The notes under the pieces: model-generated | The model's input: only the letters and a program-made list of their open reading frames with translations | What the model was told of the DNA's origin: nothing | The model's database searches: none | Translations under genes and position numbers: made by a program | From: Rhopilema esculentum | Lineage: Eukaryota | Direction of reading: 5' to 3' | Assembly: GCF_013076305.1 (NCBI RefSeq) | Contig: NW_027019640.1 | Coordinates: 4,810,378-4,874,377, forward strand | Length of the DNA stretch: 64,000 nt | Shown: in pieces, positions 17,262 through 63,129 of the stretch | Layout of the letters: each line of letters begins with the position of its first letter | How positions within the stretch are numbered: position 1 is the first letter of the stretch

Positions 17262-17560
17262 ATGAGCAGCAAGCGAAACGGAGGTATCGAGTTGAAATCT
17301 GCTTTCACTATGGGGTTCGGACGTAAAAAGGAGGTGTCTTTTGCGAGATCGCGTTCAGCGACTGAAGAAGAACTAGAGGAAAAGATTCTGCGTCCTTCCA
17401 GTCCTCACATGCGTCGAAAATCGATGATTCCACATAGTGTGCCCGGTTACGTCAAATACAGACAGAAGGGAAATCAGCGCGCTAGACGCTTGCGGGCGGA
17501 TTTATTTCATTTTCTAGAAGGCTGCAGGACTTTCTATAGTGCACTTTATCATGTTTTTGT
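17262..17560 (+). CDS. Paralog A exon 1, the cytoplasmic N-terminus. It ends ...RADLFHFLEGCRTFYSALYHVFV and leaves phase 2.
   Basis: ORF 17262..17564; a GTAAGT donor at 17561. The N-terminal motif is conserved with paralog B exon 1 (RRDIFNFLEGHKTFSSRVYHHFV). Confidence 0.8.
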
Positions 17561-20500
17561 GTAAGTACCATTAATCTAACTTTTGACAAACTTATTTTTA
17601 ACCAACTCGATAAAGTAGATAGTTTAGATTTATTTCAAGTTTGATGACCGACCCGGACTAGCTGTAGGAAGGACAAACCGAATGATATTATAAATACTAT
17701 TTTAAATTTGAGTAAAAATGCTATTATTATTAAAGTTGCAGACAATACCGCCTTGAGATACTTTGTGAATTTTGAACAGAAAAATTATTTGTGCTGAGGG
17801 GTAAATTAGTTTTTTCTTTTATCAATTGAGAAAACTGAAACAGTTTTTGTCCGTCTTGAAATATTTGCAAGATATATTTACTTCTAATATAAAGAGTTCA
17901 ATTAACAATGTCTTGCAATTTTTTTTCATATTCTCATAAAATTTTACTACAAGACGATACCACAGGGAGCATGGAAATACATAGCAACCCTGTGGCCATT
18001 ACATTACACATAATTGCTTCAAATTAGAGTTACATTAAATGTGGCAAATTACATGTTACAGATTACTAATAACAAAAAACATTTACAATTTGGATGTTAA
18101 AACAAAAACAAAGACAAACTACATTGACAAAATAAGAATAATGAAAGAAAAATTACATAGGAGAGAATTTCTTGCAATTTTTAATGGAGAGGGGAGATTT
18201 TTTGTAACAATGAAGTGTAACCGTGCCTCAAATTCTATTCAATAACCCCCAAAAGTATTTTGCCCCATTTTATTCTCTTTTAAATATTGCTCAAGATTAC
18301 TGAAGGTAATTTATTCTTTCATATTGAATTGAATAGCCCCATGATAAAGAATGGCCATAGGTTTGACACAGTCTAAGAATCATAAATCTAGGCCTGTTAG
18401 TTCTGAAGATAGATCTTTTTTCAGGTTTCTTATTATACTGGCAAGCTTAGCGATGGCAATTATGTTATCAATGAATGAATTCAAAGACTCAGCAAAATAT
18501 CAGTTTGTCATGTTGAAGATTGTAAGTATTTTGCTTCTCCAGATTGTTTCAGATCATTCTTCTTTTTTATTGTCGATACAGGGCCCCCACCACGAATTTG
18601 AAAGTAGGGGGAGATCAAGGCTAGCAAAGACAGGGGGCTAAGGCTTCTTTCTCCTTTTACTGCAGCTTTAAAACTATTTGCTTCGTAAAAAAATGGGGGG
18701 CGTGGCCAACCCACCGTCCCCCCTTCCCTGTGGCGTGGCCCTGAGATATCTCAATGAGAAACTATTCTAATATTTTTTCAAACAATGCCACGAATTTCGC
18801 GGCTGCTTGGTCAGAATAAAAATTCCTATTCTTATATTGCTTCTAATGTCATTACTTGACGCTCAATGATTTGTTTCAAAATGTTCAAGGATACAGAGAA
18901 ACAATTAATCTGGGCTTTGTGATCTAATGTACATGCCTTTGAATTTTTGAATTTGGTACAGCGCATAATTATTGTTTTATCTTGATGATTTATCCAACAC
19001 GAATCTTAAATCTATTCGCATGTTTTTTATGTTCTTTTTGACAGGAATACGTTCTTCTTGGAATCTTCTTTGTTGAATATTTGCTACGACTGTGGTCTTC
19101 TAGTGCTCACGGACATTATAGCAATTTTTTAGGGAAAGTTAGATACATACTAACTCCACATATGATTCTAGGTAAGTCTGGCTCACAGTCCTTTGTTAGC
19201 TAGAGCCTAATTTCTGTTATAAATACTATCACAGTAACACTGACGTCAGTTTTGAAGGTCGCATTCAGCGATCCTCCTTCTCCCGTTTGAAAAAGTAAAA
19301 TAGTGACTAACATGTAAAGAAATATGTTTTTCAGATGACTTGTGGTATCTATGAAAGCATTGTTAATGTTCTAGGAAGAAGGAGAAAGGGACAAGAGTGG
19401 TGAATTTTCTGATCTCCTTGTACGACAGAGATTTCTTTTTCAAATTTTCAGTCAAAAAATCAATCGTGAGATAAATTCTTCCCCCAAACTTTGACACTCT
19501 ATCGTGAAGTTGAAGTAAAACCACATTTTTGCTTGAAGACAAACGAGTAGTGTCAAAATAGTTTAAGCGCAAAAGTTGTTTGTCTCTTTCCCTAGACCCA
19601 TTAAAGCACCAATTTCGTGCACCCACCGAAATTTACCAAATGTTATGACAAGTTTATCTATTGCTTTCAGATCTATTAATCATGGTTTGCTCAGTCGGCT
19701 TGATTTATGGAAAACATTTGGATCTAGACCCCAAAACAGAGAAGTAGGTAGCTCGGCTGTTTAATGACTTTTGGGTTAAATGTACCTAGGGTAACTTCAT
19801 CGACATGTTTTTTCTTCTAATGTAGATAATAGCCTTTCGTTGCCTGTTGTTTCAATCTTTAATCATACTCCGTACATCTTGTATTTGTATTTATTACTAC
19901 CTAGCTTCCAGGTGTAATTTTAAGACTCTGAGAAGCTGTGCCTATCGAGCAGTGTCTTGGGTCCTTCCTACACCTGGAATGACAGAGACCTGGCGACTCT
20001 CCACACACTAAGTGAAAGTTTGGTCATTGCTGCAAATCACACCCATAATATTGCTTAGAAATTTTGCTGAGTTTCGGGACATCAATTTTTTTCTACTTTT
20101 CGGTATCTGTTTTTCATATTCGAGAGCTAACATTGTATTTATATCATATGTTAATAATTATCACGTTCTCGTTGCAAATTAAATCAGCCTTTTTACTTAA
20201 TGGATATTAAAATTAGTTTTTTAAAATGAAATTAAACTGAATTATTTTATTTCATTTATAGATTAATGCACATGCTGCTTTTATTGCGGATATTACGAGT
20301 CGATAGACAAAATAGATCATTTGCAATGTTCAAGAAAGTATTCCTGAAGCATAGAAAGGTACGATCATATAATTACGAGACGAATATATAGCACTTTTCA
20401 ATTGAATAAGCAACCCCCGTCATTGCAGTCAAAACGTATGCACATTGAATTCAGCTACTTTTGGATGCCTTATTACCACCTCCTGCTGGTTTATAGAACA

Positions 20501-23500
20501 TTATACAAACTCCCTGCTCTAATTAGGACCCCCGTCAATTCATCATTATCCATTTTATACTATCAGCTGAAATATATATGCAATAGAATTAGCGAAATAG
20601 CCAAACAGTTTCTTAAAGGCTCCTGCGCAACTGGCATGCTTTGCGAGTACATTTTCAAAACCAGCCTTCACACAATAAAATTATCAAGATGCCGGTTGCG
20701 CAAAGCATGCCGGTTGCGCAAGAGCCGTTAAAAGCATTATTCCCCATCACTCAACCGTTCACAGTTAATAATAGACTTAGCAGCACTTTTATGATTGAGA
20801 AAACACATTGAAAATTAGCTCTACGCTGCCGATTGGACACGCAACTATAGGTCTATTGTGTAGCACAACCAATGGGAAATTCAAATGGCCAGCGAAATGC
20901 GCCAGGACATTGTGCCTTAAAAACAAATATTATTTCATGGGGGGCGACTATGGGTTAGCTTTGATACTCGACCCCCCCTGGGGTTTTTCGAGATGGAGTT
21001 CAGTCGCCCCTGGCAGATTTTAGATAAAGCCCAAAAGTGATGTATTTTCTGCTAGTAGAAGCGCAAAATAAAGATGAAGCTTCAAGTAGTCATTTTCTAT
21101 CTAAATAACCTTGCGATCAAATTGCATAATTTACATTTTGGAGAAAATATCTTTTGATTAACAATTTTCACCATTAAAATCTTCAGCAACACCTGAGAAA
21201 ATCAAAATTAGGTTTTGGTCATTTTACTGCCGACTGCAGCAAATTATCTGGCTTTCGATAGTTCGTTGATTTGCTAGACTAAATTTATCACAAAAAGTTG
21301 ACTAGACACTCAAATGTACTGTAGCTCGTTCTCTTTGGCTGTGTAGACTGGGTTAGTTCATTGCGTTTAAGACTCACTTCGTCTCCCAGGACATTCGCCA
21401 TGTTTTGTTGTGCTGTTTACAAACGACAACAACAACATTGTAATTGTAATTTCGATGTTTTCGGCTAATCATTTTAATTTGATGATTTAAATGTTAAGAG
21501 TTATTATTCTTGATATATTTTCAAGGATTACGGTACAATAGGATGAGATTATTGGATTTGTTAAAATTAATAGTATTAACGATGTGTAATTCTCTTTAAT
21601 ATAAGATAATTCGCATTACATAGTGCTGTGGCAAAGACTAGTCACACAAAAGAGACTTGAAATGAACTGGGTGCGTTCGTTCAAGGCATGCCATTCGAAA
21701 CTTCGGCATCGTTTGGTGTGGCGGTCCTGTAATAGGGTGGGTTACAGGGATAAATGGCTTGCAGCACGTTCAAAGGGATATGGCGCCAGAAAAGATATTT
21801 AATGGAGACTCAGTCTCTCAAACAACGTGTGATCGGCTCACTGACTTACCCATTGCTGGTTCACGTGTCCCCTTCTACGCTTAGCCCCTCTTAACTGCAA
21901 AATAACTCTCCATCTAACTTCCATCTATTAACCTCCAAATTTCTTTATAGGGGCTTTATTTGGGATCATTTAAAGATCTGGCTACAGCGTTGATGCAGTG
22001 TAGTTGCCAGTTCTCCTTTTAAAGTTACATAATAAACACGCACAATTTCAAATTTACATGATAAATAGCACTGTTCTTTGTGCTTGTAACATTCTATTGA
22101 TCTGACCTAGCACATTTACATCAACTGACATGGCATAGAAATGTGTGGCCATGTTGCTTTTTCACCTTGTTATATGATTCCTAAAGAGCACCGTACTGAG
22201 AATGTATTTAAATGTTATACATATTCTGTGTACACTGTAAATTGCTCATACCATTCTCTCGACCCAGTCACGGAAAAGTTTTTACATTCATGTGCGCCGC
22301 TTAAAGTTATTTCAATCTTTATCGTTTTAAGCCATTCCTCTTATCTGATGTCAAACCTATTATTTACTTTATCTTTTCATATCATCATAAACTGTTTCAG
22401 CTATAATCCAATATAATCCTATATCCCAATTTTATTATTCGGTCCATTGGTTCAAATTTTTCTAGTTGTGAAATCGATTCGTGTGAAATCAAAATCAAAC
22501 AAATAATAAGAGTTTCCTCGTATTCTTAAGCCTATGTTAATTAGACCAGGCTGTGGCTAGACAAGTACCACGTTAGCCCGGAGAAATTGCGATAGGTAAT
22601 TTCAGTTGGCTATAAGACCTGGGTGTTTAGAATCGCGATGGTAGACGAGAATCTGCTGGTGATAGTGTTGGGAATGATGCTAATAGTAATAATAATGATA
22701 ATTAAAACCAATTAGGAATCGCTCCCTATCGATATATTCTTATGTCATATAGTCCTCTCGTGCATATAGAGTACCGAAGTGTGACGTCATCAAAAAGATA
22801 TTTTTAGAATTTCTTAAATTTGGCCACATAATCTGAAAGAACGGCATAAAATACCTCTCAATATGCAAAATTAGTTAGATATGTTCCAAATTTGGCGAGA
22901 TATGTCCAATGGAAGGTTCAAAGTTTGCTAACGGATTACTGTTATTCTGGCCTGGTTCATAAAGTTATGAACCAAGACCAAATTACAGAGGTTTGATGGG
23001 GCAAGAGCCTGTGCTCAAGTAGCCATATCTCAGCCAATTCGTAATGCCTTAAACTGAATTTGCAAATTTAGAGGTATTTCATGATGCTCTTTCAGGTTCT
23101 GGGATCAAAATTAATAAATTCTGAAAGTAGATTTTAATGGAGTCATCACTTTTGCATTCTCTTTCTTGCGGTAAGAAGGGTGTTTTGTGCCCTAGTCCAA
23201 GTTTCTTAAGCCACAGCAGATTTTTAATTCTTCTAGTTTTCGATTCATATTTTCTCTATATTCCTTTTCTTAAATTTAACTGCATCTATAAGGTACCAAT
23301 ATGTAAAAATAGATCCAGAATATAAATCATAAACATATAATTCGTCTTTGCTAAAGTAAACTTACCCTTTTTGTCTAATCGATTCATATTTTCTCTATAT
23401 TCCTTTTCTTAAATTTAACTGCATCTATAAGGTACCAAAATGTAAAAATAGATCCAGAATATAAATCATAAACATATAATTCGTCTTTGCTAAAGTAAAC

Positions 23501-26500
23501 TTACCCTTTTTGTCTAATCGATACATATTTTGCAGGTACCTTGATACCGTGGCCTACATTCTGTTTTGATAGAAAGCAACCAAAATCAAGGTTACACTTT
23601 TTACTTTGCAGGAGCTGTTGACTTGTTGGTATATGAGTTTTATCATGATAATGTTTGTGGCAATTTTGGTTTACGCGCTGGAGACAGACCCGAAAGATGT
23701 CACTGTAAATAACCTTTTCAATGGATTTTACTGGGGAGTTGTAAGTATTTTTAGATATCTCTTTCAGATTGTTACAGTGGGGAGCTTATGTTGTGCAAGT
23801 TGGAAACATAGAAAAGCTATTGAGAACTCTTATAACATCCTAGAGTAGATGAATTGATTTCGTTAGGGCCCAAAGAACTTATAAAGCTTGTAATGCATTA
23901 CGGGATAATTTTTATCAATTATTGACCTAAAGCGTAAGTTTGATAAACACTAATGAAGCATTGTGCTTGAATTTGAAATGAAATAGAGGCTTTGTATCTT
24001 GTAGATTTCACTTGCCTCGATCGGATACGGAGACATAAGTCCAAACACAGCTATTGCAAAGATTCTAATATGCGTTATTGCTGTGTTCGGAACAGCTTTC
24101 TTTGCCATGCCTGCTGTAAGTTTTAATTTTGTCCTTTGATTTTTCTTTCTGCAATCTAGTAGAATTTCAGATTCTCAGTAATGATAAACAAAACATGGTT
24201 TTAAGAACTGGTAAAGCAAAGTGTGTTTGCTTGGCCAGTTATTGTGGCCCTTTTGTTAAAGACAATCGATAGATACTAATGTAGTTCAAGAATTTAGGCC
24301 ACCTGTCAATCAAGAATTGGCGAATTGCCTTTATAGACATTCTTGTTACAATCAGTCTTTCAGTTGTGACTGGCCTGCTTTTGCATCGATGTGATTCAAG
24401 GCTTTTCGAACATATTATCTAGGAGGGAAACGAAGTGCTCAGTTGCTTTTCTGCCCTTGTGACATTCCTTTGCTTTAGTCCTTAGACAATCATCTATGCA
24501 TGTAAGTGAAAGACTTGGTAGCTTCACGATTTCTTACAGTGCAGAGCTGGCATTAGATATTACTTAAAGATTTAAAAACTGGTGAATTTAGAAATTTTTT
24601 ATTTTTTAAAATTTTTATAGATTTTTTATATTGATCAATTTAGGAAGATTGATCAAGAAATCTATTTTAGGGTATAATTGGTTCTGGTTTCGCTTTGCAA
24701 GTTGCAGAGCATCAAAAAGAGAAGCATATCAACAGAAAAAGACGTCCTGCCGCAGTTCTGATTCAGGTGAAAAGCCTTCTGCATTTTACCGAATAGGAAA
24801 GGGACAGATATCTTGTCCAAAGGACTTTGCAAATATAAGGAGACTCTAGAGCATGCATTATGGTAGGCAAGGATATAGGATCTGTGAATACAGTGAAAGG
24901 GGAGAGATTGCCCTAGCTGCCTAAATACCGAAGTGATGACGTCATAATAATATATTTTTAGAATTTTTCAATTTTGACCATCTAACCTAAAAAGCAATAT
25001 AAGATAACTTTGAATGCGCAAATTTAAGTTGAATGTGTTAGGGAATGGCTGAGATATGGCCACATCAGCACAGGCTTTTTCCCGTCAAATCAATGTAATT
25101 CGGTTTTGGTTGATAACAGTAATTCGTTTCCACCCTGAAATTTTATGCCGTTCGTTCAGATTTTGAGGGTAAAAATCAGTAACCCCAGCACCCTTTGCTA
25201 CTCTGCCACCGTTCTTTGTCATATACTTTGTCAAACACTTTACCAACTGGATTTACATTAGGCCCTTGCTAAACTTCCCTCCACATAGAAAGTGGTGCAT
25301 CTCTTGCACTTACCCCTTTTTTTCTCGAAGCCTAGTTTTCCTTTCACGACTCTTCCTTAATTATCTTGTATTTATACACGACTACTTTGTTCAAAGAAGC
25401 TTTTTCTGCTTAATTTTCTTCCTTCTTTTTTAAATGACATTGTATTTGTTTTGGTGACCTCTTCTTTAAAATGAACTCGCTCTCTTGATATAATAAACCT
25501 CCTGTGAAGGGAGTTTTGCTTCCCATTTACAGTATATAAGTTACTTTTTACATCGATTCTTTCTGTTATAATCTAATTCGCTTCGTAAAAATCCTATTTC
25601 TTTTAACAGGAACCTTTTTCCTTTTGCGTATAATATTGTTCTCGTTTTACTACCAATGACCATTCGGAATCAGCCTATTTTCTTTTGAATGATTTCAAAA
25701 CATCTTAAAGATTGGTATGATATTAACTACATTTGCATATTTTCAATTTTTTTACAGAGTTTTTGGAGACGCTACGCAGGTGACCATGATCTTCATGCAA
25801 CTTGGTTGAGACATATGGTCGATAGGGAGTCTCGAAGGATCACAAAACAACGTATAATCAAGTCACAAGATGTGCTACAAGGACATATCCCGTTATCAGC
25901 CGTAACAGGTAAGTTAAATTGCCTTATACTTATTTGTTTATACAAATGATGTTCTTCCATATCGAGTGTTGTTCCAGCCAATGTTTACGATGATCTACGG
26001 CCTGCTAGGAAGATTGGCTTGCATCTATTTGCTGACATAAAACGTAAAATACGCAAATAAAATGGCTTTGAGGCATTTTGAACTGTTGTTAGAAAAGCTC
26101 AAACGATATTTTTTAGCTATGGCTCTGGTAGGACAATGTCTAGTGAGGCAGGACAGCCTAGCAGGGGCGGATCCAGATATTCTCACCATTCTCTCTTGAG
26201 AACGTCATTTCTCTCGAAAGATGAAATTGCAAAAATCAAGGTTCAAATATTCAATTTTAGTCCCAAGACAACTATTCAAAAATTAAAAAGTTTGAAAAAC
26301 TGAATTCTTAATTCTTAATTATGATTTCAGTGCAGAATTCTGTGAAAAATTAAAGAATTTTCAGTGCTGAAAAATTACAAAATTTCTTGTGTTAGAAAAT
26401 GTAGTTGATATAAACCACTTTTTGAAAAGGATGTTTCTCAGACATTTGTAAGGGCGTGGTAATTTTTTTATAAACGGGCTACGCCCATGCCGCCCCTTCT

Positions 26501-29500
26501 TTCTTGGTGAGAACATTATTTTTCTTCTGGATCCGCCTCTGCCTAGAGATCTGAACATGGCTACAAAATAAGTCTTCGATTTCGTTTATCCGTCAAACGT
26601 CAAACGAAAGTATCAAACTGGCTCTCGTTCAATGTAAGAACAATAGAAACAGATAAATTTGATTTTGAGACCCCATGTCACGATTTTAAGCGTTTTTCCT
26701 GGATATTTGTGATTTGTAGAGATTTGAACACGATTACTGTACTCAATCAGATATCCAGCTATTAAGCTATTACGTAGAACGAAGGCTATTTATAATCTTG
26801 CCAATGAAGAAGGGCGAATTTGTCGTGCAATTTGTCTTTAAGTTTATTTCAAGGATTCAACGGAACTTGTAGACACCTGCGATGATTCCAAAGTATCAAA
26901 TTTTGCCCCGTTTAGCCCAATAACCTTCAATGGATTCAATCACTAAAGATCAGGCTGATAATTATTGTACTCTGGTCAACCTTTGATGCCATTCTGCAAA
27001 TATTGCTCGTTAGTATTCTTGTAAGCCTGACGAGCAACAAAACTCCAGTTAGCTTTGTTTCCCTCGTAGTAGATTAGAATTTATTTTGAGTGATTTCTAT
27101 CTCCTTACCACCGCCTTTTTGACCACATTTGTTGCAAATCCATTTTGAGCTTCGTTTTCAAGCTGAGATTCGTCTAATCTTGACAGATCCACGTAATGGA
27201 TTGAGATTGCCAGAGCTTTTCTACGTTTTTGCAAATTAAATTATAAGCTTGCATCACGTGTGACTTTTGATGTTACCTGAGGTGACATTCATCCTTGAAA
27301 TTAGAAGATCATCTTTGCTACAAAGCGTTTAGTTTTGATCAATTTATAGCCAAAACAACGTCAATAAAGAGAACAAACGTAAAAGCTGATCGCCTTTATT
27401 GTCAGCATATGACGAGAGGGTAGAATTTGCATGATAGCTTAGGCTACACACTCCCGGGTCACGTTTTTAAATTTTCTAGAGAAAAATGCCAAAAGCTATT
27501 CTTTGCTTGCAGTCACAAAAAGTACCAACTGTAAATTTAGTTAATTACAGTCTCTTGTCTCTTTTTTTTCTCCTCTTCGTATGCACCAATAGAATTATGG
27601 AGAAACGCAATTCTCGTTTGAAAAAAGATGTTATCTTGCTTAGAAGCAAGAGTAAAAATGGCAAGTCATGAAAATTGCTCTTCAGAGAACCTGCCCAGGG
27701 ATGATATGATCTCTTTTTTCGTTTTGAAGTGTGCTCAGCGTTTATCATTAACCGTTTTAGGGAGCAACATGAGTGAGCTTCTGAGCGAGCTTCGAAATCC
27801 CTCTTTTCTCGGTTAGAAGTGCTCCTTATATCCTGACATATTTTGAGCCAATTTTGCATCTAACCAAACATCTTAAAAGAGAGTTATTTTCTGTTTTCAT
27901 TGTTTTTTGAAAGCTTCAAGCAAGCCCACATCTGTGAATGGCAGTCGATCTCAGCCAGTTCAGCTGCAAAAGTAAGTAAGGTAGCATTTTCTGAACATCC
28001 TCTTTATGTACGGTGCCAGCGTACTCTGCACAGTTCTAAAAAGCATGCAGTAAAGGATACCAATGCGACTGGTGATAAAGGGCTGCATGATGCTAGTAGT
28101 CAGCCACTATCACGTGATTTGGAAGAACTATCAGAGTATATACGTGTGGTGATAAAAGCCGTATTTTGTACTTTACCTGCACAGCCGGTGTGTTTGTGCA
28201 ACCCAATAACACAATGTTCCTTGTTCTTTGTTCAAAGATAGATGCTTGTAGACATCCCAATAACCCACAAAGAATCACAACCATGGCGTGCTATTTTCTA
28301 CATTGAGGTGAAATCAATCAGGGCTGTCGTTAGCTGTTGTGCTAAAGGGGAGGGGGTTACTTAGATCCAATTTTCCGACAAAGTGGATGAGCTGTCTTTA
28401 ATTGGTCGACAAGTCTGAAAATTTGACGACAAAGCACCATTACATTGCAAAAAGCTCCTTGTTTTATACAATGAATTTTTTCCAATGGGAAGTCCCATCC
28501 CCCACGTCCCAACGTAGTGACGACCCTAGAATTACCCTCTTTACCTTCTTTTTTCTTCTCAGACTCTCAAATCCTGTCTTCTTTCAAAGCTAAAATCGAC
28601 AGACTTGATTTACCCCCATATATTATTCTTAGCCCCTCGCTTTCTCCCCTAGTAAGGGCTTTGCTTTAGGCCTCCGGGCCCTACCTAACATTACTGACTA
28701 AATAGGATCTTCTGTTTATTTCATACCAATGAAGATGCAAAAGCTTTTAATTTTTTCTGTCATTGCTTTCATAGACTGACTCTGTCTGAGAAAAATGCCC
28801 TGCGATTCATTAGAAGATTAAAGATCAGAGCTGCATTGAAATTATTTCGGGTGAGTGTTTTATGAATATTGTGCATAAATGACAGTTCATCTTTCCAAAG
28901 AAAACAAAACTCTACGTTCATGATTATCCTAACTAGTTCCTTTTTACGCTGTCATATGTCTGGAATGCTTAAGTAAAATAGCAACTAAACTTAAGCTTGT
29001 TTTCAACAAAACTTTAATCTAAAAAATATCGAGATTAGCTGTAAATTATATTTTACACCCATAATCTGCATAGCATAAGCTGCAGTTGTGCTTATTTGCG
29101 TAAGATAATCTGCAGTTGCGTAAGATAATCTGAATGGTCTTTGAGAATTTTTAAAAAGTGTCTTGCATATGCAAATATTCTCTGAGTTTTAATTCTTTTG
29201 AAAAAGATGCCCCAGGTTAAGTGGTAAAAAGATAATATTGATAGAGAGAAGGCAGTCTATCTTACTGATAAAAAATACTGATAAAGAAGCTGGTAGTTTT
29301 AATAGATTTGGACCGGACTGTATCGAGCAGAATTCAACAGTTCTGAGCAAGGAACTCAGAGAATTCAACAGTTCATATTAGGGGTAAAGCTAACGGAACT
29401 CAACAAATTACAAAATTACTGAATGCCTGAGTATAGGGAGGTGATAACTGGCTTTTCTTGCAATTCCTTAAGTTAATTACAGGCATTTTGGGGGTTCACC

Positions 29501-47029: not shown

Positions 47030-47406
47030 ATGGGCACTCAGAAGCCACTGATAGCGAATAATAACAAAGTCTCATACACAGCAGTACTGCATCGTTACAT
47101 TGACTCTAAAGAAATGCCATCGAGGTATGATAAGGACACAAACCAGCACCCCTTAGAGCACTTAAACCATGCCACACCTAGACTGCGTCCTGATGAAAAA
47201 GCTTCTGATGACAAATCGCAGAGGAACTCTTTTGACTTTAGGGCGCATCCAAACCTTCCTGGAATCCCCATTCCATATGAATATCATGTTGAAATGAAAC
47301 CTGAAAGTATCTATGTGGAATCAAAAAAAAGAATTCTGCGGAGAGACATCTTTAACTTTTTGGAAGGACATAAAACTTTTTCGAGCAGAGTTTATCACCA
47401 TTTTGT
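47030..47406 (+). CDS. Paralog B exon 1, N-terminus (..KRILRRDIFNFLEGHKTFSSRVYHHFV)
   Basis: ORF 47030..47410; donor GTAAGT at 47407, the same junction position and phase as in paralog A. Confidence 0.8.
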
Positions 47407-53400: not shown

Positions 53401-56400
53401 ACCTATTGAACACAATCATGTTCATTATTTTCTTTATTGAACCATAATCATGATTGAACACTACAATAAGAAAGAGGTATGTTCGTTTTGTGGGGGGGGG
53501 GGGGGGGGGGGGTTGGGGGGTTGATTTTGGCACAGAATAATAGACTGTTGAGGAAAAGACAATTGGGTTAAAATTTTCAATTTGATTTAAAACTGATTAC
53601 AAAGCAATACTTCTTATCTTTTCAATTTGACTTCGTAACAACAGCAAAATAAAGCTTTTTCGGGTACAGAAAAGCCTAAGTCGAATCTGATCCTATATGT
53701 AAGCACTAAGAGGGAGTGTATCACATCAAAGTCGACCACGCAAATTCGGCTCCGATTGCCTGCCAACGTGGCCTAAAATCAACCAAGTTTACAGGTTGAT
53801 GCTTATCATCCTAACCCGCTTTCAACAAGTTTGAAATTTTCCAAAATACTTTGTTAGTTGATTTCGTTTTCTGTGTTTCTAAATTTTGGTGTCATTCTTG
53901 CAGGTTTCAATGACAACCATTGGATATGGCGATGTCTCCCCTGTTACCGGATTGTCTAAAATAGTTCTCTGCATATTTGCACTTATGGGAGCAGGGTTTA
54001 TAGCGATGCCTGCTGTGAGTATGTTTTACATTTCCTTAATCTTCTCCATCTGCAGTCGCATAATAATCTCGAATTGATCTCATTGTACTGAAATCTTATT
54101 TGTTTTGAAGCATCCAGCAGACAATTTAAGATGAAAAAGTGCGTATGATCTCTGCTGAATGCAAATCAAACAATTTAAAAATCCGAGGGGGGCTTCATTT
54201 GTCTCTAAGCAACATTTGTCAATTTTAAGCCATTGTATAGTTGCCAGCTTGATAGTTTATAAGACCTGACTATATATTGCGACAGATCATATAATGAGAG
54301 GATGGCTCAGTTGTTAGAGGCGCTGACTACAGACCCAAGGGTCCGTGGTTCGAGTCCCTGTCATGACCAAACTATCACCCAGAGTGGGTAGAGTCGCCAC
54401 CAGTCAGGCGTGGTCACATCGAGAGAAAGGGCCCAGGACACTGCTCGATAAGCATAACTTCTCAGTGTCCTAAAAACAACCTATGGATGCTAGGTAGAAA
54501 AAAACAAATACAAAATACATGACCATTAGTATTTGCACAGAGCAGGGGCATGGCTGTGGAGGATTCTGTGATGTCGTCCACCGCCTTTTTAATTGCAGCA
54601 ATGAATAAAGCAAAGCTTTAGGTAAGATTAATGGAGAATCCCTTGGAATCATATTTAAGAGCTTAGAAGCCAAAATTGAGCTTTCTTGATGCCCCTCCCA
54701 TACATTTATCATTTGTTCTAGCAAGGTGTAAAATTTAAAGCATTTTTTAGAAACCTAGCAAACTTGTAGGAAAATGTTTCCACAAAATAAATGAGAACGT
54801 TATAGCATGTTTTCAGTCTGGTTCTTTGGTGGTAGTGAACGAATTGAAGATCTTCTAACCTTGGATTATCTTTGGTTATCTAACCTCTGTTGGACAAGAT
54901 ATTCTAACCAGGGGTTGCCTTACCTCAGTTTGTTGAGTGAAACCCTTTCTCCATCGTCACATTGCAGAGGCCAAATGTGAACTCCAATGCATGCATTTTT
55001 TAATAGCAGCTTACTTAACTAGCGATTAGTGATAATTTTTTTTAATTTTCGTGATAAAATTTTCTTAAGATTTCTTAATTCTTTCTTCTTCTTTATGTTC
55101 CAAATCTTTCGACGTTGGATGACACAGTAGCTCTCCATTTGTCTCGGTCCATTGCAGTTCTTGCTGCCCTCTCATACCGCATCCCAGTCCACTCCTTGAT
55201 GTTGTCATACCAACTCATCCTTGGGCGACCTCTGCCTCTCTTTCCATCTATATATCCTTCTAACAGTGTTCTGTATATGTTATTTAGCCGTATCAAATGC
55301 CCAAAATATTTCAGTTTCCTGGCCTTTAAGGTATTGATCAGCTTTCTTTTTTCATTCATTCGTTGAAGCACTTCCTCATTTTTCACTTTCTCGTCCATGA
55401 CAATTTCAGCATTTTTCTATATCTCAAATGCCTCAAGACGTTTCTCAAGTGTTGTTGTTACAGTCCATGTCTCTACTCCATAAAATTACTAAGTTTCTTA
55501 ATTAATAAGTGTTAAAGAGCTCCTTTTTTTAGAAAAGCACAAAAATGCAATATAAGATAACATCTTTATATAAGCTATCTTTGCCAGTTGAACCTGAAAT
55601 AGGTACCGAGTCATCGAAACGAATCATTTCCATTTTTAATTGTATCATTTTCAAACAGTTTCTTAAGATTGAGGGTGATCAGTACTTAAGTTTCTTTTAA
55701 ATTTTTTGTCAATGGCTTTAAAAAAAGCAAAAATTTTATAACATATTGGCTACAAAGCTTTTTCGTCTGACACTCCACAGAGCATAAAACGTCAGAATAA
55801 GGGTCCGAAAGAACACGATGAAAAATATATACTCAGTTATGGATCGAAATAGGCCTACACAATTTTTTGTCACCTTAGAGACAAGGATTTATGGATGGTT
55901 TTTTTTATGAAAAAATACCATGTGTATGCACTATCACTACCTTGAAGTGGTATACTATTCCCGAAATTTCAGCACGCGTGATTCATGCTTGCTTTATTAA
56001 AAGGATATTTATTTCTGAAAATAGAAGAAGTGATACAACCCACATTCTAACCCCCCCTTCCCCCCAAAGTTTTGTGATATTTGGATAGTATAATTCTTTG
56101 TTGTGTTTGAGGCCTGAAAATAAGTAAAATAGGTACAGCGCTGTTTGCTCATTTCATTCCTCCCGGTCTGAATGGTCACAGTGAATACAGAGTGTTGTTT
56201 TTATGTTTCTTAGGGTTGTGCCACTACTTCTATATCGTTTTTTCTCTACCTTTATAGGGTATAATTGGTTCAGGGTTTGCACTGCAAGTAATCGAGCAAA
56301 GGAAATTGAAACAAAAGACTAGACGAAGAAGACCAGCTGCTGAACTCATACAGGTACGATCTTCTTGCAGAATCCCGAACTAGTGGCAGGAAGGTGGAAA

Positions 56401-59400
56401 TAAACATTCGATCCACGTGCATACATACCTTTTATACTCCGCTTGCGGTCTCAAAATTGTCATGTCCATGCGAAAGACATTCGAATCGAGTAGGCATATC
56501 CGTTTCATCGGGATACACGAAGGGGTACCCTGCCCCCTCTTAGTATCTAGGGCGCTTCGTAGCATAAGTAGTGAAACGTACCAGCCAACGTTATGGCATC
56601 GAGTTAGAAATATCCTGGACCCTGCGTCGATACAATACGGCATATCCAGCGCAATTCAAGTTTTCAGTTGAGAGTGTGAATCGAAAAAGTTGCTTATTCG
56701 CAACAATTTGGTATTAAGAAATACCGGTATATGGAGAGGGCATTAACTTGAGCTTCATCTATGAACATCCAAAAGGGGCTCATACCCATCTACCTATTCA
56801 CAGCAAACTGTTTTACTCCCCCATTGATTTTCTTTCCTATTGGACTTATGAACAGACAATATTGGTGTTTCTTTGCAGATTGCATGGAAAGTTTATGCAT
56901 CTAACCCAGCGCGAGGCTTGACGAAGACTTGGCTGACACATATGAAACTACGGGTTTCTATGGTTAATAGTCACAGAAATTCTTTAGGTAATGTTATGTT
57001 TTCTTCATGTGTAACATTAGCTAACGTTTAATTTGTTTTACTAAAGATGTCGTTTTATATAAATAAAAAAAGAGTGACAATTTTTAGTGCTTGATTATGC
57101 AAAGCTTTTGGCATTTTGCTCCAAATATAATGTTGCTTTTTACCTGTTATAGCAGCCATTGGATTTTGGGATATAGTATAGAACTTTAAATTATTCCCTT
57201 TATTAGATTATCTGAATGCTTGTACTCAAAGGGTTGATTAAATTGTTTTGAGACCTTTCTAGCAAAGCATAGTTTTCCTGTCCGTAAAATGTTTGTTCTT
57301 GTGCGATTAGTTGTACTTTTAAACTGTTATTAATTTTGAAGCGTTTTGAATTTATCCCGGATGGTTGTTTCTAAGTGCTAGCTTTCATCACTGTCAAATT
57401 TTTTATCTTACAGATTTATCGGCATTGAATTCTAGCTACGAATCATTCGAAAACATCCACATTCGGTAATTCCTGATTTATTACCTATGGTTTCGAATTG
57501 TTTCTCTAACTAAGCAAGCCACAAAACCGTTTGTTTTATTACATTATGTAACATAACATGACTGAAAACTTTCCGTTTATTAATCTTTGTCTAGAAACCA
57601 ATGAATATGCACTTATACCATTATTTGACTGCCTGCAGTTAAGATTATGCTCCATTAAAGAATCGTATAGGCGTAATTTTTTGAGCGTGTCTTCCTATGG
57701 TAATGGTAACCGCAAGCCAGTTTCTTTGTCTGAGCGATCAAAAGAAAATATCAGGGGGTAAGCACCCATAAATTTTTTTTTCAATTTGCAGGGAAATCCT
57801 GCCTTTGAATGTCTATTTGTACTCTATTTATCCTTGTATTGCGGTGTGTTTGAAGCTAGTCGCTAAAGGTTCCTTTTGCTTAGAAAAGTTCTTTATGGGC
57901 TTTTTGAAGCAATTTGTATGCAAATATGTCGTGTCGCAAAATACGCAGGCTGTTCTGAAGTGTACAACTACAATAAATCATTTTGTATATTATGATACAA
58001 ATATCACGATGTTTTGTATTGGTATTTTATCACAATGTATTTTATTATGAGTTATAGAGTCCAGCGACATGTTAACTAAAGTTCGTTATTTGGAAAATTC
58101 GGCAAACAGTTTTATGAAGCACATCGGGCCGCCCTCGTAATGGGTTTAGGTTTAAATATTTATTTATATTTTGCATAAACACAAAAATTCTGCTGTTCAA
58201 TTGGTTAACAGTTATTGGCTGCCTCTGCCGTTAATTTTTGTGGCCTAAGTAATGCAAAGGGCTTAAACAGGCATTTCGAAGGTGATACATTTTTCTTTCC
58301 ACTTATGTTTGACAATTGGATATAAAGGTTATAGAAATTTAATGAATTTTCGACAAAATTTAGTTATCATCTTTTGTAGAAATTATTCAAAATTTAAACT
58401 TAAAATACAACTGGTTATTTTTCAAGATTGCATAGTTGCAGATATTTTCTTTCTTACTGAAATTTGTAAGGTTTTAATGATTTCCTTTGCAATCAATTTC
58501 TTCACTGCAATGAAATCTTGGACCAAGGCGAAAGAAACCCTTAGAAAATCAGGGAGAATTTATTGCAAATTAGAAACTTTCATGAGAGCATTGCCTTTGT
58601 TCCGGTTACCGTTAATTGCTAGATAAGGATAGCGTTTATTTTGAAGACTACCTATTTTTATAAAGGGCCATTTCCAGCATCTACATTTAATCCTGTTGTT
58701 TAATTTATACAGAAATCTCACAATTGGCGAGAAGCATGCTCTGGGATTCATAAGACGTCTTCAGATGAACGTTGCTCTGCGTAACTTCAAGGTACTAGGC
58801 CCATTCGTTATGCTGAAAGCTAACAAAATTATTCAACTATCTTCAGTTGCTTAAAATGGTCTTTTAGAATGTTTTTCTTTGCTGAAATCGATCGGTGCGA
58901 GGGTACATTTACAATTCATTATCATTTTCCTTGCAATATTTACCGACAGCTTTTGAAAGTTCTATTGTTTATGAACATTTAATGCAGTTTTGCGTAATGA
59001 TGCAAACCAGTTTTGATGCAAATTTGGTTGTTGCGGAACGCTCAGACGTTGGTGTCGCGAGAGCTCTTGCTCTTTTTGACCGTGACAAATTTTTTATGCT
59101 TCTTGTTTTCAATTTTTTTGCATATGTTGAAGCGGCAGTCCTTGCGCATTCAATGGTATAGCAACTTAATGATAGCTTTTTCCCGTCATTGTGATAAAAC
59201 ATTGTTTCTAGACACTGCTCAGAAGTCAATTCTTTTTTTCTGTCGCTACCATCTTGAGGAAAAACCCTCACAAAGTTTGCTTACAGATCGATAAGATTAT
59301 TTTTTCGACGAATAAATAGATGAAAGGCCAAAGAAACTTCAAGAAAAAATTCGAGGAAATTGATAAAAACATTTTCATGAAAACTGACTTTGAAATTTGT

Positions 59401-62400
59401 AAACAAATTTTCTCTAACAACAGATTCGCAACTGAATTCGAAACTGTCCGGATACTTTCGTGAGGGGAGTGTAGTCTAGTGAATGCCTGAGACACTGCAT
59501 CTCTTGGTAAAAAGTCAGTTAAATATACGAGGCTTTTAAATGGTGCACGGTGAATTGTTTATGTCAGGGGCAAGAGAATATTGACGTAAAATACTTCTAT
59601 AATTTTTTGCATTCCAAATTCTTGTATCTTATTGATATTTTACTGTCCGAGAGGCTTGTCAGTCTCAAGGGTCTGTGGGCGCTTGTGTTCAGGGGCGGAA
59701 GGCTTGGTGCAGGGCTTGTTCTTAGTAGAGAGGACTGCTCGCGCCAATTTGCCAGCCCAATTCCAATTAGGGAATGTTTTGCAAGATTGGGACGTTCCTG
59801 AAAACTAGACTCGCAATGCGGTCTCACATTCTTTTTTCAGCACTTTATACTTTAATTAATGCAAATTTTAACATCATCAAAACAGAATAGTATCTTTATG
59901 ATGATGAGCATTTTGTTTAAGTGTATGTGGAGTTGTAGTTTTTAACATTCTAATTTGAAATACTATATGATTTTGTTGAAGTATATGAAATTTAAAAGCT
60001 GCTAGCACTTGTCAGTACATTTTAAAACAGACTTTTTTAAGCACTGTTGAATTTGAAGCGATTAAAAAGTCTATCTAGAATCGTGAACTGTGTCTTCCTA
60101 ATGTTGCGTTTAAATTTTTATCGATGTAATTGTGTCATTATTTTAGCAATCCACAAGGCCGTATGATGTCAAAGACATTCTAGATAGATTTGCGGCAGCC
60201 CATGTTGAAATTTTTGAGAGAATCAAGGAGATCAGGAAAAAGTAAGCATGCTTTAAATGTTCCATTTTGTCATCTTTATTTCCTGTGATGGTATGATTTC
60301 GTCCCTAAGGTATTTTTACTTTGGATTAGGCCACCTAGATGGATTAGGCCACTGACTTTGAAATTTCGTTCGACTCCCTGACATGACCAAATTTTCATTA
60401 GTCGATAGTCGCCAGCTCACTGCAATTCCAGGCATAGGAATCCCGGGGTGTGGTCACGTGACTGAAAAGGACTGGGACACTGCGGATATAATATAATGGA
60501 TTGGGTATACCCTAAGTGCAAAATCCGCTCAGTCATGATTTTTATGACTGCGATGCTATTGGTTGACCTGGAACTGGTCACATGAACTCACCTCGTACTG
60601 ATTGACAAAACAATTTCCATCAATAGCAAGTTGTCAACAGCGGATGCAAATATCACATGAAATAGCAGCGATCACGCCGAAACCAAATGACCCCCTATAG
60701 AGAAGGCCTATTTACCATGACTCAATGCCTTTAAGTGTCCTAAAAACTACCTTCGGATGCTCAGTAGAAACAATAAAAATAAAAATAAAAATGTAAAAAC
60801 AAAAAAAAATTTAAATACAAATGCAAATACGAACGATACTTAATTTCGAAAGGTCGAATTGTCAATTGTGTGAAAGACCTATTGGAAATGCACTGTTGCA
60901 AACGTTTCCATAAATTTTTTGCTATAAATTTAATTCTAAATAATTGCTTTCGGTGTTCTTAAAATAAAGTAGACAATGGACGAGGTTGGAAGGTTTAAAT
61001 TTAATAACCCTACTGGAAGAATTTTGAAGTAGGATGAAATTTTTTATCAATACTTTATATGGCATCGAATAGAGTTCTTAAGTGATGACGTCACTAAAAA
61101 TATTTTTAGAATATGCGAATTTGGATCCTATAACCTGAAAAAGCATCATAAATGTGCAAAAGCAGTCAATTGTGTTACGAATTGGCAGAGATATGACCAC
61201 ATGTGTACTGGCTCTTTCCCCATCAAACCTCTGTATTTTGGTCCCTGTTCGAAACTTTATGAACAGAGCCAAAATAACAGTGATTCGTTAGGAAACTTCA
61301 AATCTTTCGTTGGCCATATCTCAACCGATTTTGGACATATTTGGCCAAACTTACACATTTCCAAGTATTTCATGATGATCTTTTATGTTATGTGGTTAAA
61401 ATTCAAAAATTCTAAAAATAGATTTTTGGTGACGTCACACTGTAGAACTCCATAGCGAGGCACTGTTTATACTCGTCCCAGGCTTTGTTCATGAAATATA
61501 TTTCAAACTTATAAACTGAAATAACATCTTTTTTTAGGGTTGATGATTCAAGGGGAGTTCAAGGTAAATAGCTTTTGGACAATATTTTTACTCTTGACTT
61601 TGATGTTTTGGCTAGTTCTAATTTTAGAGCACTCTTTGTTACTGCTTTGGAAAGGCTCTTGTACATTTTTCAGTCACAGCAAAGTACCTCATTGTTGTTA
61701 ATGGATCCTTAACTTTTTCCAATAAAACCTTTCATTTTCATGATGCAAGATCGTTCGTTTTTATAGATAAATGGTTTAACAAATAGCTTGCTATCAGACA
61801 ACATAGCTTTTTAGGGTAATAAATTCCTTAAGGTTTCAAATTTTCATTTCAAATCAACCTATAGTCGAATTTATTAAACGGTTTTTAAAGAAATTAGCTC
61901 TTTGCCTGTGTGTGTTTAAAAAATACAAGTATTCAATATTAACAAGGTAGTACAGTGTGCTTATTTTAATTGGATGAAAATTTGTTTCTGTTTTTAGAGG
62001 AAATTCAAGCATCGAAGGTGGAAACCGAAATGAAACTTGAACGAATTGAATCCAAGGTTTGTTTGAGAAAATAACTTTGTACTTTCATACCATGCTTGAT
62101 AGCAAGGCCAGTCAGATGGACATTTGTATTTTTGAGAGAATATAGAGTACCGAAGTATGACGTCACCAAAAATCTATTTATAGAATTTCTTGAATTTGGC
62201 CGCATAATCCGAAAGAGCGGCATAAAATACCTCTCATTGTGCAAAATTAGTAAGATATGTTCAAAATTTGACGAGATATGACCGGTGAAAGATTTTACGT
62301 TTGCTAACGGATTACTGTTATTCTGGCCTGGTTCATAAAGTTATGAACCAAGACCAAATTACAAAGGTTTGATGGGGCAAGAGCCTGTGCTCAAGTGGCC

Positions 62401-63129
62401 AGATCTAAGCCAATTCGTGATGCTTTTAACTGATTTTGCATGTTTAAAGGTATTTCATGATGCTCTTTTAGGTTCTGGGATCAAAATTCAGAAATTCTAA
62501 AATATATTTTTATGACGTCATCACTTCAGTACTCTATAAAAGAAAAATAATAATTAGACAAATCTCCTTTTCAAAATCGGAAAAAAGAGAAAACTTACCT
62601 TTCTCGACTGAACCTCATTTATCATTACGTGTTATTTTCGTATGTACTTCTTGAAATTACAAACGCAAACATTACAGTACTTTAAAAGCTTGCATGTCCA
62701 GATTTTGAATTTAGGGAATCAAAAGGCACATTTCAAGTCCTTGAGGAAGGCTCTGTTAACATAAATGTAAATACTGTACACTTACGTGACAACAGTATTA
62801 GGACGATGAATAACAAAATGGCGGCTCCAAAACTAGCATTTTAACATTGATTGAACAAATCTTGCTGTTTTGGTGGGATTCTAGAAATGGCATCAGCAAA
62901 AACACAATTCCTGACAAATTCAATTTATTTTCAACCTTTCTATGATAGAAAGGTAGCAAAATGTCAGGAAGAAATGGAAAATATCAATGTTTTAGTTTCA
63001 ATGCCGAAAACACAAAAGCGACCAGAAAGAGAACGAGAAGCAATAAAATATTTGGGTCTAGCGAGTAATTTGTTTGCTGAAACTACAAGAAAGTTTGGTA
63101 GCAGCAAGTCTACAACACATGTTATTTAG
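47030..63129 (+). CDS. KCNQ/Kv7-family voltage-gated K+ channel, paralog B (multi-exon gene span; ATG at 47030 preceded by an in-frame TAG, stop TAG at 63127-63129)
   Basis: It has the same exon architecture as paralog A, with a canonical TTIGYGD filter, the IQ motif AAELIQIAWKVYA, and helix B ALGFIRRLQMNVALRNFK-QSTRPYDVKDILDRF. Confidence 0.85.
47983..48085 (+). CDS. Paralog B exon 2, S1 (VIFIILSSILFAVCSTLKDQSDTFSIRMRNVTLGY)
   Basis: Acceptor ctttcttttag and donor GTAAGT. Hydrophobic S1 sequence. Confidence 0.75.
48627..48753 (+). CDS. Paralog B exon 3, S2 (EFCLFFIFSIEYGLRVWSCTANSSYISFQGRLRFIRRPIMIL), 127 nt
   Basis: Acceptor ttctag and donor GTAAGC. Contains the EY.LR.WS motif. Confidence 0.85.
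49579..49651 (+). CDS. Paralog B exon 4, S3 (DAVTILASVILIVTLALNFQTDEYR), 73 nt
   Basis: Acceptor cctttttcag and donor GTGATT. Confidence 0.75.
50533..50629 (+). CDS. Paralog B exon 5, S4 (FLFLLQLFRVLRIDRHRGAFATFQCVVRNHFK), 97 nt
   Basis: Acceptor cattgtag and donor GTAAGT. R at every third position plus the RIDRHRG motif. Confidence 0.85.
52234..52365 (+). CDS. Paralog B exon 6, S5 (ELLTCWYMGFIVIMFLSYITYADPSHTSSKGTVSDLANGLYWGV)
   Basis: Acceptor ttcttttag and donor GTGAGT. It shares ELLTCWYM with paralog A exon 6. Confidence 0.85.
53494..53520. repeat. G homopolymer of about 22 nt (plus GGTTGGGGGGTTG), in a paralog B intron
   Basis: Direct reading. Other G/C runs of 9 nt or more lie at about 1358, 5027, 16741, 37265, 44031 and 49367. 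Confidence 0.9.
53904..54014 (+). CDS. Paralog B exon 7, pore and S6 (VSMTTIGYGDVSPVTGLSKIVLCIFALMGAGFIAMPA), 111 nt
   Basis: Anchored to ORF 53886..54077; acceptor cttgcag at 53902-53903 and donor GTGAGT at 54015. Carries the canonical KCNQ TTIGYGD filter. Confidence 0.9.
54296..54535 (+). mobile_element. tRNA-derived SINE, in a paralog B intron
   Basis: The head GAGGATGGCTCAGTTGTTAGAGGCGCTGACTAC..GGTCCGTGGTTCGAGTCCCTG has Pol III A and B boxes. It has a shared tail ..CAGTGTCCTAAAAACAACCTATGGATGCTAGGTAGAAAAAAACAAA with the copy at 60318-60835. Confidence 0.65.
55093..55480 (-). mobile_element. LINE ORF2 3'-terminal fragment (CR1/L2/Jockey-like tail), in a paralog B intron
   Basis: The minus-strand translation is TLEKRLEAFEI*..VMDEKVKNEEVLQRMNEKRKLINTLKARKLKYFGHLIRLNNIYRTLLEGYIDGKRGRGRPRMSWYDNIKEWTG...DRDKWR, the classic LINE C-terminal domain. 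Confidence 0.75.
56258..56353 (+). CDS. Paralog B exon 8 (GIIGSGFALQVIEQRKLKQKTRRRRPAAELIQ), 96 nt
   Basis: Acceptor ctttatag and donor GTACGA. Same length and phase as paralog A exon 8. Confidence 0.85.
56879..56987 (+). CDS. Paralog B exon 9, helix A (IAWKVYASNPARGLTKTWLTHMKLRVSMVNSHRNSL)
   Basis: Acceptor ctttgcag and donor GTAATG. Matches KCNQ SAWRYYATNPSR..ATW. Confidence 0.8.
57414..57465 (+). CDS. Paralog B small linker exon (DLSALNSSYESFENIHIR), 52 nt
   Basis: Acceptor ttatcttacag and donor GTAATT. Its phases (1 in, 2 out) are exactly those needed to join exon 9 to the helix B exon. Confidence 0.55.
58713..58791 (+). CDS. Paralog B helix B exon, first part (NLTIGEKHALGFIRRLQMNVALRNFK)
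   Basis: Acceptor tttatacag and donor GTACTA. Paralogous to A exon 28775..28850. Confidence 0.75.
60147..60241 (+). CDS. Paralog B helix B exon, second part (QSTRPYDVKDILDRFAAAHVEIFERIKEIRKK), 95 nt
   Basis: Acceptor ttattttag and donor GTAAGC. Near-identical motif to KCNQ RKPYDVRDVIEQY. Confidence 0.85.
60318..60835 (+). mobile_element. SINE, a second copy of the same family with a longer body and an A-rich simple-repeat tail
   Basis: It shares the segments ..GACTCCCTGACATGACCAAA.., ..GTGGTCACGTGA.. and the 3' end ..AGTGTCCTAAAAACTACCTTCGGATGCTCAGTAGAAACAATAAAAATAAAAAT.. Confidence 0.55.
61076..61455 (-). mobile_element. MITE copy, reverse-oriented and more diverged, in the paralog B intron
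   Basis: It begins ..AGTGATGACGTCACTAAAAATATTTTTAGAAT and ends ..TTCTAAAAATAGATTTTTGGTGACGTCACACTGTAG, i.e. it has both TIRs. The internal sequence is the reverse complement of the family consensus. Confidence 0.7.
61538..61563 (+). CDS. Paralog B 26-nt microexon ((R)VDDSRGVQ)
   Basis: Acceptor ctttttttag and donor GTAAAT. Same length and phase as the A microexon. Confidence 0.55.
61998..62056 (+). CDS. Paralog B 59-nt coiled-coil exon (EEIQASKVETEMKLERIESK)
   Basis: Acceptor tgtttttag and donor GTTTGT. Same length and phase as A 31793..31851. Confidence 0.55.
62143..62536 (+). mobile_element. MITE copy 3, in the paralog B intron before the terminal exon
   Basis: Full-length, with both TIRs containing TGACGTCA. 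Confidence 0.8.
62953..63129 (+). CDS. Paralog B probable terminal exon (VAKCQEEMENINVLVSMPKTQKRPEREREAIKYLGLASNLFAETTRKFGSSKSTTHVI*)
   Basis: A pyrimidine tract followed by the acceptor ..gatagaaag|GTA, in the frame of ORF 62851..63129. The heptad-like V....E..N.N.L resembles the start of the A terminal exon. The acceptor choice is uncertain. Confidence 0.45.
   Translation, partial: VAKCQEEMENINVLVSMPKTQKRPEREREAIKYLGLASNLFAETTRKFGSSKSTTHVI

Follow-up and report, generated by a model that had tools for sequence, protein, structure and literature searches.

Structure of the Locus

A stretch of 64,000 nucleotides from the jellyfish Rhopilema esculentum (contig NW_027019640.1, positions 4,810,378 to 4,874,377 of the forward strand), hereafter the window, was analysed, and positions are counted from its first letter. 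The window carries two genes of the KCNQ (Kv7) type of voltage-gated K+ channels, named here gene 1 and gene 2, which are placed head-to-tail on the + strand, as stated in a preliminary description made from the sequence alone. Gene 1 was delimited by spliced mapping and gene 2 by an exon scan, and the spacing of about 14 kb given in that description was measured as 13,910 bp. The earlier observation is real, apart from the end of gene 2, which was mis-assigned, and its interpretation is largely right, apart from the weight given to exon conservation and to an M-current label, both of which were over-read.

Translated comparison of the window halves revealed conserved + strand segments, colinear between approximately 17–33 kb and 47–63 kb. 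Gene 1 was found by this comparison, and the draft protein was then searched against the protein database. The coding sequence of gene 1 extends over positions 17262–33119 (+), is complete, with a length of 15.9 kb, and consists of 15 coding exons separated by GT-AG introns, according to the exact spliced mapping of XP_065063070.1. The translation is exactly that RefSeq protein (642 aa, 'KQT member 5-like', P0001), and gene 1 is an annotated gene of Rhopilema esculentum. Its exons, placed by the spliced mapping (exon 9 also by alignment), are as follows.

17262–17560, + strand, gene 1 exon 1, N-terminus, 299 nt
18425–18521, + strand, gene 1 exon 2, S1, 97 nt, phase 2
19045–19171, + strand, gene 1 exon 3, S2, 127 nt
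19671–19743, + strand, gene 1 exon 4, S3, 73 nt
20262–20358, + strand, gene 1 exon 5, S4, 97 nt
23612–23740, + strand, gene 1 exon 6, S5 and turret, 129 nt
24005–24115, + strand, gene 1 exon 7, pore (SIGYGD) and start of S6, 111 nt
24671–24766, + strand, gene 1 exon 8, end of S6 and basic post-S6 segment, 96 nt
25758–25908, + strand, gene 1 exon 9, helix A (IQSFWRRYA), 151 nt
27914–27971, + strand, gene 1 exon 10, A-B linker, 58 nt
28775–28850, + strand, gene 1 exon 11, helix B part 1, 76 nt
29783–29877, + strand, gene 1 exon 12, helix B part 2 and helix C, 95 nt
30454–30479, + strand, gene 1 exon 13, microexon of 26 nt
31793–31851, + strand, gene 1 exon 14, coiled coil, 59 nt
32685–33119, + strand, gene 1 exon 15, helix D and C-terminal tail, including the stop codon

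Gene 2 is a second intact KCNQ gene of the + strand, with its ATG at position 47030, 13.9 kb downstream of gene 1. Positions 46000–63900 were scanned blindly for segments of the form AG[L nt]GT with the length of a gene 1 exon and the correct phase, which were scored with BLOSUM62. Unambiguous gene 2 partners were obtained for the exons of 127, 97, 111, 96 and 95 nt (scores 63–119, next candidates ≤ −8), together with best candidates for the exons of 73 nt (49579–49651), 26 nt (61538–61563) and 59 nt (61998–62056). The last three are backed by the ortholog from the jellyfish Sanderia malayensis and by the visible part of a published gene model. No partners of the same length were detected over the scanned positions for gene 1 exons 2, 6, 9, 10 and 11; the remaining gene 2 exons (S1, S5, helix A, linker and helix B part 1) were placed via homology and splice sites. 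The resulting model comprises 15 exons with GT-AG introns and a frame that is open throughout (in exon 15 as far as the window end), and it is identical to Resc_012490 (ReKCNQ2c) over the visible published sequence, including the microexon peptide KKVDDSRG. In the following list, "published model" refers to that visible part.

47030–47406, + strand, gene 2 exon 1, N-terminus, 377 nt, donor GTAAGT (homology, published model)
47983–48085, + strand, gene 2 exon 2, S1, 103 nt, phase 2 (identical to the published model)
48627–48753, + strand, gene 2 exon 3, S2, 127 nt (translated comparison, scan)
49579–49651, + strand, gene 2 exon 4, S3, 73 nt (scan, in agreement with S3 of Sanderia KCNQ2c)
50533–50629, + strand, gene 2 exon 5, S4, 97 nt (translated comparison, scan)
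52234–52365, + strand, gene 2 exon 6, S5 and turret, 132 nt, donor GTGAGT (homology, splice sites)
53904–54014, + strand, gene 2 exon 7, pore (TIGYGD) and start of S6, 111 nt (translated comparison, scan)
56258–56353, + strand, gene 2 exon 8, end of S6 and basic segment, 96 nt (translated comparison, scan)
56879–56987, + strand, gene 2 exon 9, helix A (IQIAWKVYA), 109 nt (homology, splice sites)
57661–57757, + strand, gene 2 exon 10, A-B linker, 97 nt if the acceptor is at 57661 (firm donor GTAAGC at 57757)
58713–58791, + strand, gene 2 exon 11, helix B part 1, 79 nt (homology, published model)
60147–60241, + strand, gene 2 exon 12, helix B part 2 and helix C, 95 nt (translated comparison, scan)
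61538–61563, + strand, gene 2 exon 13, microexon of 26 nt, (K)VDDSRGV (in agreement with VDDNITTQ of Sanderia and '...KKVDDSRG' of the published model)
61998–62056, + strand, gene 2 exon 14, coiled coil, 59 nt (scan, Sanderia ortholog)
63941–64000, + strand, gene 2 exon 15, helix D, first 60 nt only (tblastn with the C-terminus of Sanderia KCNQ2c; acceptor tttctag, phase 0)

The start of the Sanderia ortholog is equivalent to the second methionine (MPSRYDKD) of gene 2 exon 1. An exon is required between exons 9 and 11, because a phase 1 entry and a phase 2 exit are needed there; its acceptor is ambiguous, since positions 57595, 57661 and 57721 are all frame-compatible. At the 3' end, exon 15 opens with VNTLTHQMSDVTDLLRELLA, which is 55% identical to helix D of Sanderia KCNQ2c by tblastn and resembles the gene 1 segment VTNLRDIVVDTKDLLEKL. 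As this last exon begins at 63941 and passes the window end, gene 2 is incomplete in the window, and of the two genes described as complete this holds for gene 1. The open reading frame (ORF) at 62851–63129 (+; modelled acceptor 62953), from which gene 2 had been given an end at 63129, lies in intron 14 and showed no similarity to the ortholog. It was rejected as the last exon, tblastn leading to 63941–64000.

Family Membership and Protein Features

Both predicted proteins matched the Pfam family Ion_trans (gene 1, E = 2.5e-23; gene 2, E = 3.9e-19) with near-full profile coverage, indicating a six-transmembrane core S1–S6, and PF03520 (KCNQ_channel, helices B-C-D), the C-terminal domain that KCNQ channels have instead of T1 or CNBHD, with 39.2 and 46.1 bits for the two proteins (gathering cut-off 25); the matches to both families exceeded the gathering cut-offs. 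The top 25 PDB matches of each protein were all KCNQ1–5 (25/25, E 1e-60 to 1e-72), the strong protein-database matches of both were all KQT/KCNQ, and none lay outside the family. Human KCNQ1 and KCNQ2–5, the latter being the M-current subunits, have the same domain plan and are the best structural relatives of both jellyfish proteins.

The 111-nt pore exon encodes the selectivity filter GYGD in both genes, as SIGYGD in gene 1 and TIGYGD in gene 2. Compared with human KCNQ1, gene 1 has SIGYG for TIGYG, and LT replaces the basic RK of the S2–S3 loop; this basic pair is thus lost in gene 1 (RYILTP) and kept in gene 2 (RFIRRP). Both genes encode a tryptophan in S5 (ELLTCWYM) which is matched in the alignment by the tryptophan of ELITAWYIGF, from a KCNQ2-like fish sequence, and sits at the position of the tryptophan of the retigabine/gamma-aminobutyric acid (GABA) site of KCNQ2–5. 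A basic post-S6 cluster was present in the alignment of both proteins. The IQ motif of helix A aligned with vertebrate KCNQ sequences (LIQSFWRRYA in gene 1, LIQIAWKVYA in gene 2), as did helix B, which reads LTLSEKNALRFIRRLK and LTIGEKHALGFIRRLQ in the two jellyfish proteins. The helix C motif RPYD(E/V)(R/K)DI and a heptad-like helix D were also found in both. The alignment agrees in this respect with the earlier statement that both copies keep IQ/helix A, helix B and the coiled coil.

The two proteins share 46% identity over exons 2–14; the value falls to 36% when the full alignment is counted and is 40% in local BLASTP. The initial estimate by eye of about 45–55% is therefore adequate for exons 2–14 but too high for the whole proteins (36–40%).

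Exon Architecture

Gene 1 and gene 2 agree in all 14 intron phases, and 8 of the 13 internal exons are of equal length, these being all eight pairs listed in the preliminary description. Its more general statement, that every pair has the same exon length, does not extend to the other five internal pairs, which differ by whole codons: the exons of S1 (97 nt in gene 1, 103 nt in gene 2), S5 (129 and 132 nt), helix A (151 and 109 nt), the linker, exon 10 (58 and 97 nt, the latter uncertain with its acceptor), and helix B part 1 (76 and 79 nt). The intron lengths are all different.

The human KCNQ1 introns c.477/478, c.683/684, c.921/922, c.1032/1033 and c.1514/1515, taken from the splice-site nomenclature in the literature, were mapped onto the protein alignment via the well-known residue numbering of KCNQ1. 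They are situated, respectively, before the S2 glutamate (E160), within the R1 codon in phase 2, before the end of the pore helix, between ...LPA and GI(L/I)GSG (A344/G345), and, in phase 2, before helix B. All five checked introns equal those of both jellyfish genes in position and phase, and the human pore exon (c.922–1032) has the same length as the jellyfish one, 111 nt. Human KCNQ1 exons of 127, 97, 96, 76 and 95 nt occupy the corresponding places. Since the checked introns are common to human KCNQ1, the architecture is a family-wide ancestral trait and not specific evidence on the jellyfish pair. The variant c.1128G>A, considered as a further KCNQ1 splice datum, proved to be a KCNH2 variant and was not used.

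Orthology, Phylogeny and Linkage

Lara et al. (2023, Genome Biol Evol 15:evad009, PMC9989356) reported four KCNQ genes each for Rhopilema and Sanderia malayensis. In that study a single KCNQ was inferred in the cnidarian ancestor, followed by one medusozoan duplication (KCNQ1 vs KCNQ2) and two later KCNQ2 duplications in the scyphozoan lineage; its File S1 lists Resc_012489 as ReKCNQ2a, Resc_012490 as ReKCNQ2c, Resc_012496 as ReKCNQ2b and Resc_012543 as ReKCNQ1. On the basis of sequence identity, gene 1 is ReKCNQ2a (Resc_012489) and gene 2, where the published sequence is visible, is ReKCNQ2c (Resc_012490). ReKCNQ2b corresponds to P0015 and ReKCNQ1 to P0009. Both genes are thus already published and phylogenetically placed, and their physical linkage alone is not discussed in that paper, which does not use the words tandem, synteny or adjacent and leaves adjacency implicit in consecutive gene numbers. 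It does not comment on the exon structure or the S4 charge pattern of ReKCNQ2a and ReKCNQ2c.

Each of the four Rhopilema KCNQ paralogs has a 1:1 ortholog in Sanderia malayensis, with 59–65% identity and 100% bootstrap support in every case. Comparison of protein models gave SmKCNQ2a (Smal_016943) and SmKCNQ2c (Smal_016944_45) as the orthologs of genes 1 and 2, at 59% and 60% identity, respectively, and in the S5-pore-S6-preA core gene 2 and Sanderia KCNQ2c hardly differ. In Rhopilema the two genes lie on the same strand and adjacent, with no unrelated gene between them; only simple repeats and a reverse-transcriptase fragment were detected in the spacer. The genes are numbered consecutively in Rhopilema (Resc_012489/012490) and, among the protein models of two annotations, in Sanderia (Smal_016943/016944_45; EukProt P012155/P012156), from which it is very probable that the two already lay side by side in the last ancestor shared by Rhopilema and Sanderia. 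ReKCNQ2b is found six gene numbers downstream in Rhopilema (an offset in gene numbers, not in bp), so the locus is a loose three-gene cluster rather than a simple pair. The adjacency of KCNQ2a and KCNQ2c, in Sanderia as judged by numbering, supports local duplication as the origin of the scyphozoan KCNQ2 expansion.

In the neighbour-joining (NJ) tree gene 2 was sister to KCNQ2b (ReKCNQ2b/SmKCNQ2b) with 98% bootstrap support, and not to gene 1, in accordance with identities of 42–44% to ReKCNQ2b/SmKCNQ2b vs 36% to gene 1. Gene 1 grouped with hydrozoan KCNQ2 (92%). The three KCNQ2 groups A, B and C and hydrozoan KCNQ2 formed a clade with 100% bootstrap support which was cnidarian-only and apart from all bilaterian KCNQs sampled. 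Genes 1 and 2 are consequently not orthologous to any single human KCNQ, but members of a medusozoan-specific clade; the designation as M-current subunits, which would make them counterparts of KCNQ2–5, is a functional analogy at most. Under either the NJ or the published tree, the sequence comparisons place the split between gene 1 and gene 2 before the divergence of Rhopilema and Sanderia, although the two trees differ on the duplications relative to Hydrozoa. An ancient tandem duplication, as initially proposed, is in line with the separate Sanderia orthologs of both genes at 59–60% identity, but not with an exclusive pair, the closest paralog of gene 2 being ReKCNQ2b.

S4 Voltage Sensor

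The S4 segments (exons 20262–20358 and 50533–50629) read K-H-L-R-R-R in gene 1 and R-F-Q-R-R-R in gene 2, and do not follow the canonical pattern R1-R2-Q3-R4-x-R6. Position R2 (R231 in KCNQ1) is H in gene 1 and F in gene 2, and none of the sampled sequences of the medusozoan KCNQ2 clade has R2 (Y, M or L outside genes 1 and 2), while the aligned vertebrate KCNQs, a coral KCNQ and ReKCNQ1 retain it. In gene 1 the Q3 position is L.

The human KCNQ1 mutation R231A results in a constitutively open channel (PMC2154355). Given that effect, the clade-wide loss of the R2 charge in medusozoan KCNQ2 provides a concrete hypothesis on gating, but since R4, R5 and R6 are retained in S4 of the jellyfish proteins, it is uncertain what the effect on function would be. 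By analogy, the KCNQ2a and KCNQ2c subunits might have strongly left-shifted or voltage-independent ('leak-like') gating and possibly form a co-regulated heteromer, a jellyfish counterpart of KCNQ2/3; if true, this would be a natural version of the constitutively open R231A channel, but such a reading is speculative and is regarded as rather unlikely.

Interpretation

Genes 1 and 2 are, with high confidence, neighbouring paralogs that encode pore-forming alpha subunits of KCNQ (Kv7)-type voltage-gated K+ channels and derive from old local duplications. These duplications took place in the medusozoan or scyphozoan lineage, the split preceding the divergence of Rhopilema and Sanderia, and both copies have since been kept under purifying selection. 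The predicted proteins combine a four-helix voltage sensor (S1–S4), an S5-pore-S6 module with the filter (T/S)IGYGD, a basic post-S6 segment and calmodulin-type helices A (IQ motif) and B, as well as a helix C/D coiled coil which would drive tetramer assembly. By extension from the family, from which K+ selectivity, voltage gating, dependence on phosphatidylinositol 4,5-bisphosphate (PIP2) and calmodulin, and tetramerisation are all taken over, each product would be a tetrameric K+-selective channel gated by S4 movement. PIP2 would act on gating at the interface of voltage sensor, pore and C-terminus, calmodulin would bind helices A and B, and helices C and D would set assembly specificity. 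The gene 1 and gene 2 products may also form heteromers.

Several points weigh against this interpretation. Exon 10 and the 3' end of gene 2 are sequence-predicted only, and gene 2 is without an identical or near-identical entry in a database of 5.8 billion proteins, its best match being a Sanderia protein at 57% identity, whereas the other three Rhopilema KCNQs are present as RefSeq entries. The exact age of the split is unsettled, since hydrozoan KCNQ2 falls with gene 1 in the NJ tree while the published Bayesian tree places the duplications within Scyphozoa. Finally, as both proteins are without R2 in S4, and gene 1 also without Q3 and the basic S2–S3 loop, a normal KCNQ-like dependence on voltage and PIP2 cannot be assumed.

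The missing database entry, with no protein above 57% identity though gene 1, KCNQ2b and KCNQ1 of the same species are present, and the ambiguous linker exon 10 could also suggest that gene 2 is an unexpressed relic or pseudogene beside a functional gene 1. This is very improbable: its exons are open in all 15 cases, their AG/GT sites being canonical and their phases conserved, the gene has a published model (Resc_012490-T1), and a neutral relic would not retain 60% identity to the Sanderia ortholog, with S5-pore-S6 near-identical, across jellyfish orders. The absence of ReKCNQ2c from the RefSeq and EukProt protein sets, despite Resc_012490 in the original annotation, may instead be an annotation gap. 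A similarly small probability is given to gene 2 being a direct and exclusive tandem copy of gene 1, each the closest relative of the other. Physical adjacency and identical intron phases would fit such a copy, but the phases are family-wide and common to human KCNQ1, and gene 2 belongs with ReKCNQ2b/SmKCNQ2b according to both bootstrap support (98%) and identity (42–44% vs 36% to gene 1).

Even less probable is a single read-through or fused transcription unit, for which the shared strand and orientation of the two genes could be adduced, as well as the occurrence of merged models in this region, for example Sanderia P0121 (KCNQ2c with a TLC-domain protein). Against it, the C-terminal tail that precedes the gene 1 stop codon is also conserved in P0003, a related transcript, gene 2 begins with a separate N-terminus which has its homologue in Sanderia KCNQ2c, and the 13.9-kb spacer contains transposon debris and, from 0.56 kb past the gene 1 stop codon, AATAAA signals; in addition, two independent annotations have separate models. 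An assembly artefact (haplotig or collapsed duplicate), already considered unlikely in the preliminary description, is the least probable alternative and effectively refuted: a protein identity of only 36–46% excludes an assembly duplicate, the intron lengths all differ, each copy has its own Sanderia ortholog, and similarity at DNA level in the gene regions, queried with the transposon family, is due to dispersed repeat copies only. Old neighbouring paralogs thus remain the preferred explanation. Its significance is slight beyond bookkeeping, the additions to the published record being the linkage, the possible RefSeq gap and the loss of R2.

Spacer, Repeats and Neighbouring Sequence

33120–47029, no strand assigned, intergenic spacer of 13,910 bp between the gene 1 stop codon and the gene 2 ATG

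No channel exon was detected in the spacer. Its ORF 40236–40724 (−) matched Pfam RVT_1 (E = 1.9e-14) and represents a reverse-transcriptase (retroelement) fragment, of which no second copy was found in the window. A Pfam scan of ten long non-channel ORFs matched this fragment only, and no further gene was detected by it in the spacer or in the region of 1–17 kb.

At its C-terminus the Sanderia malayensis KCNQ2c model P012156 (P0121) continues into a TLC-domain (PF03798) membrane protein, probably because two gene models were merged; this points to a TLC gene immediately behind KCNQ2c, in the same orientation, in Sanderia. A search for such a gene downstream of gene 2 found none within the window.

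A (TGTTA)n microsatellite of approximately 57 copies is located at 45784–46068, 1 kb upstream of the gene 2 start codon, and accounts for the spurious 'MLCYV' repeats among the listed ORFs. A repeat of about 390 bp is interspersed at 7150–7548 (+), 22764–23151 (+), 62139–62540 (+), 61069–61441 (−) and, as a partial copy, 24926–25117 (−), that is, ahead of gene 1 and within intronic sequence of both channel genes. Its copies are 76–89% identical and carry at their two ends an inverted repeat of about 110 bp, similar to miniature inverted-repeat transposable elements (MITE). Beside one of these MITE-like copies, in gene 1 intron 5 (23240–23531), a 139-bp unit is repeated 2.1 times with 98% identity.

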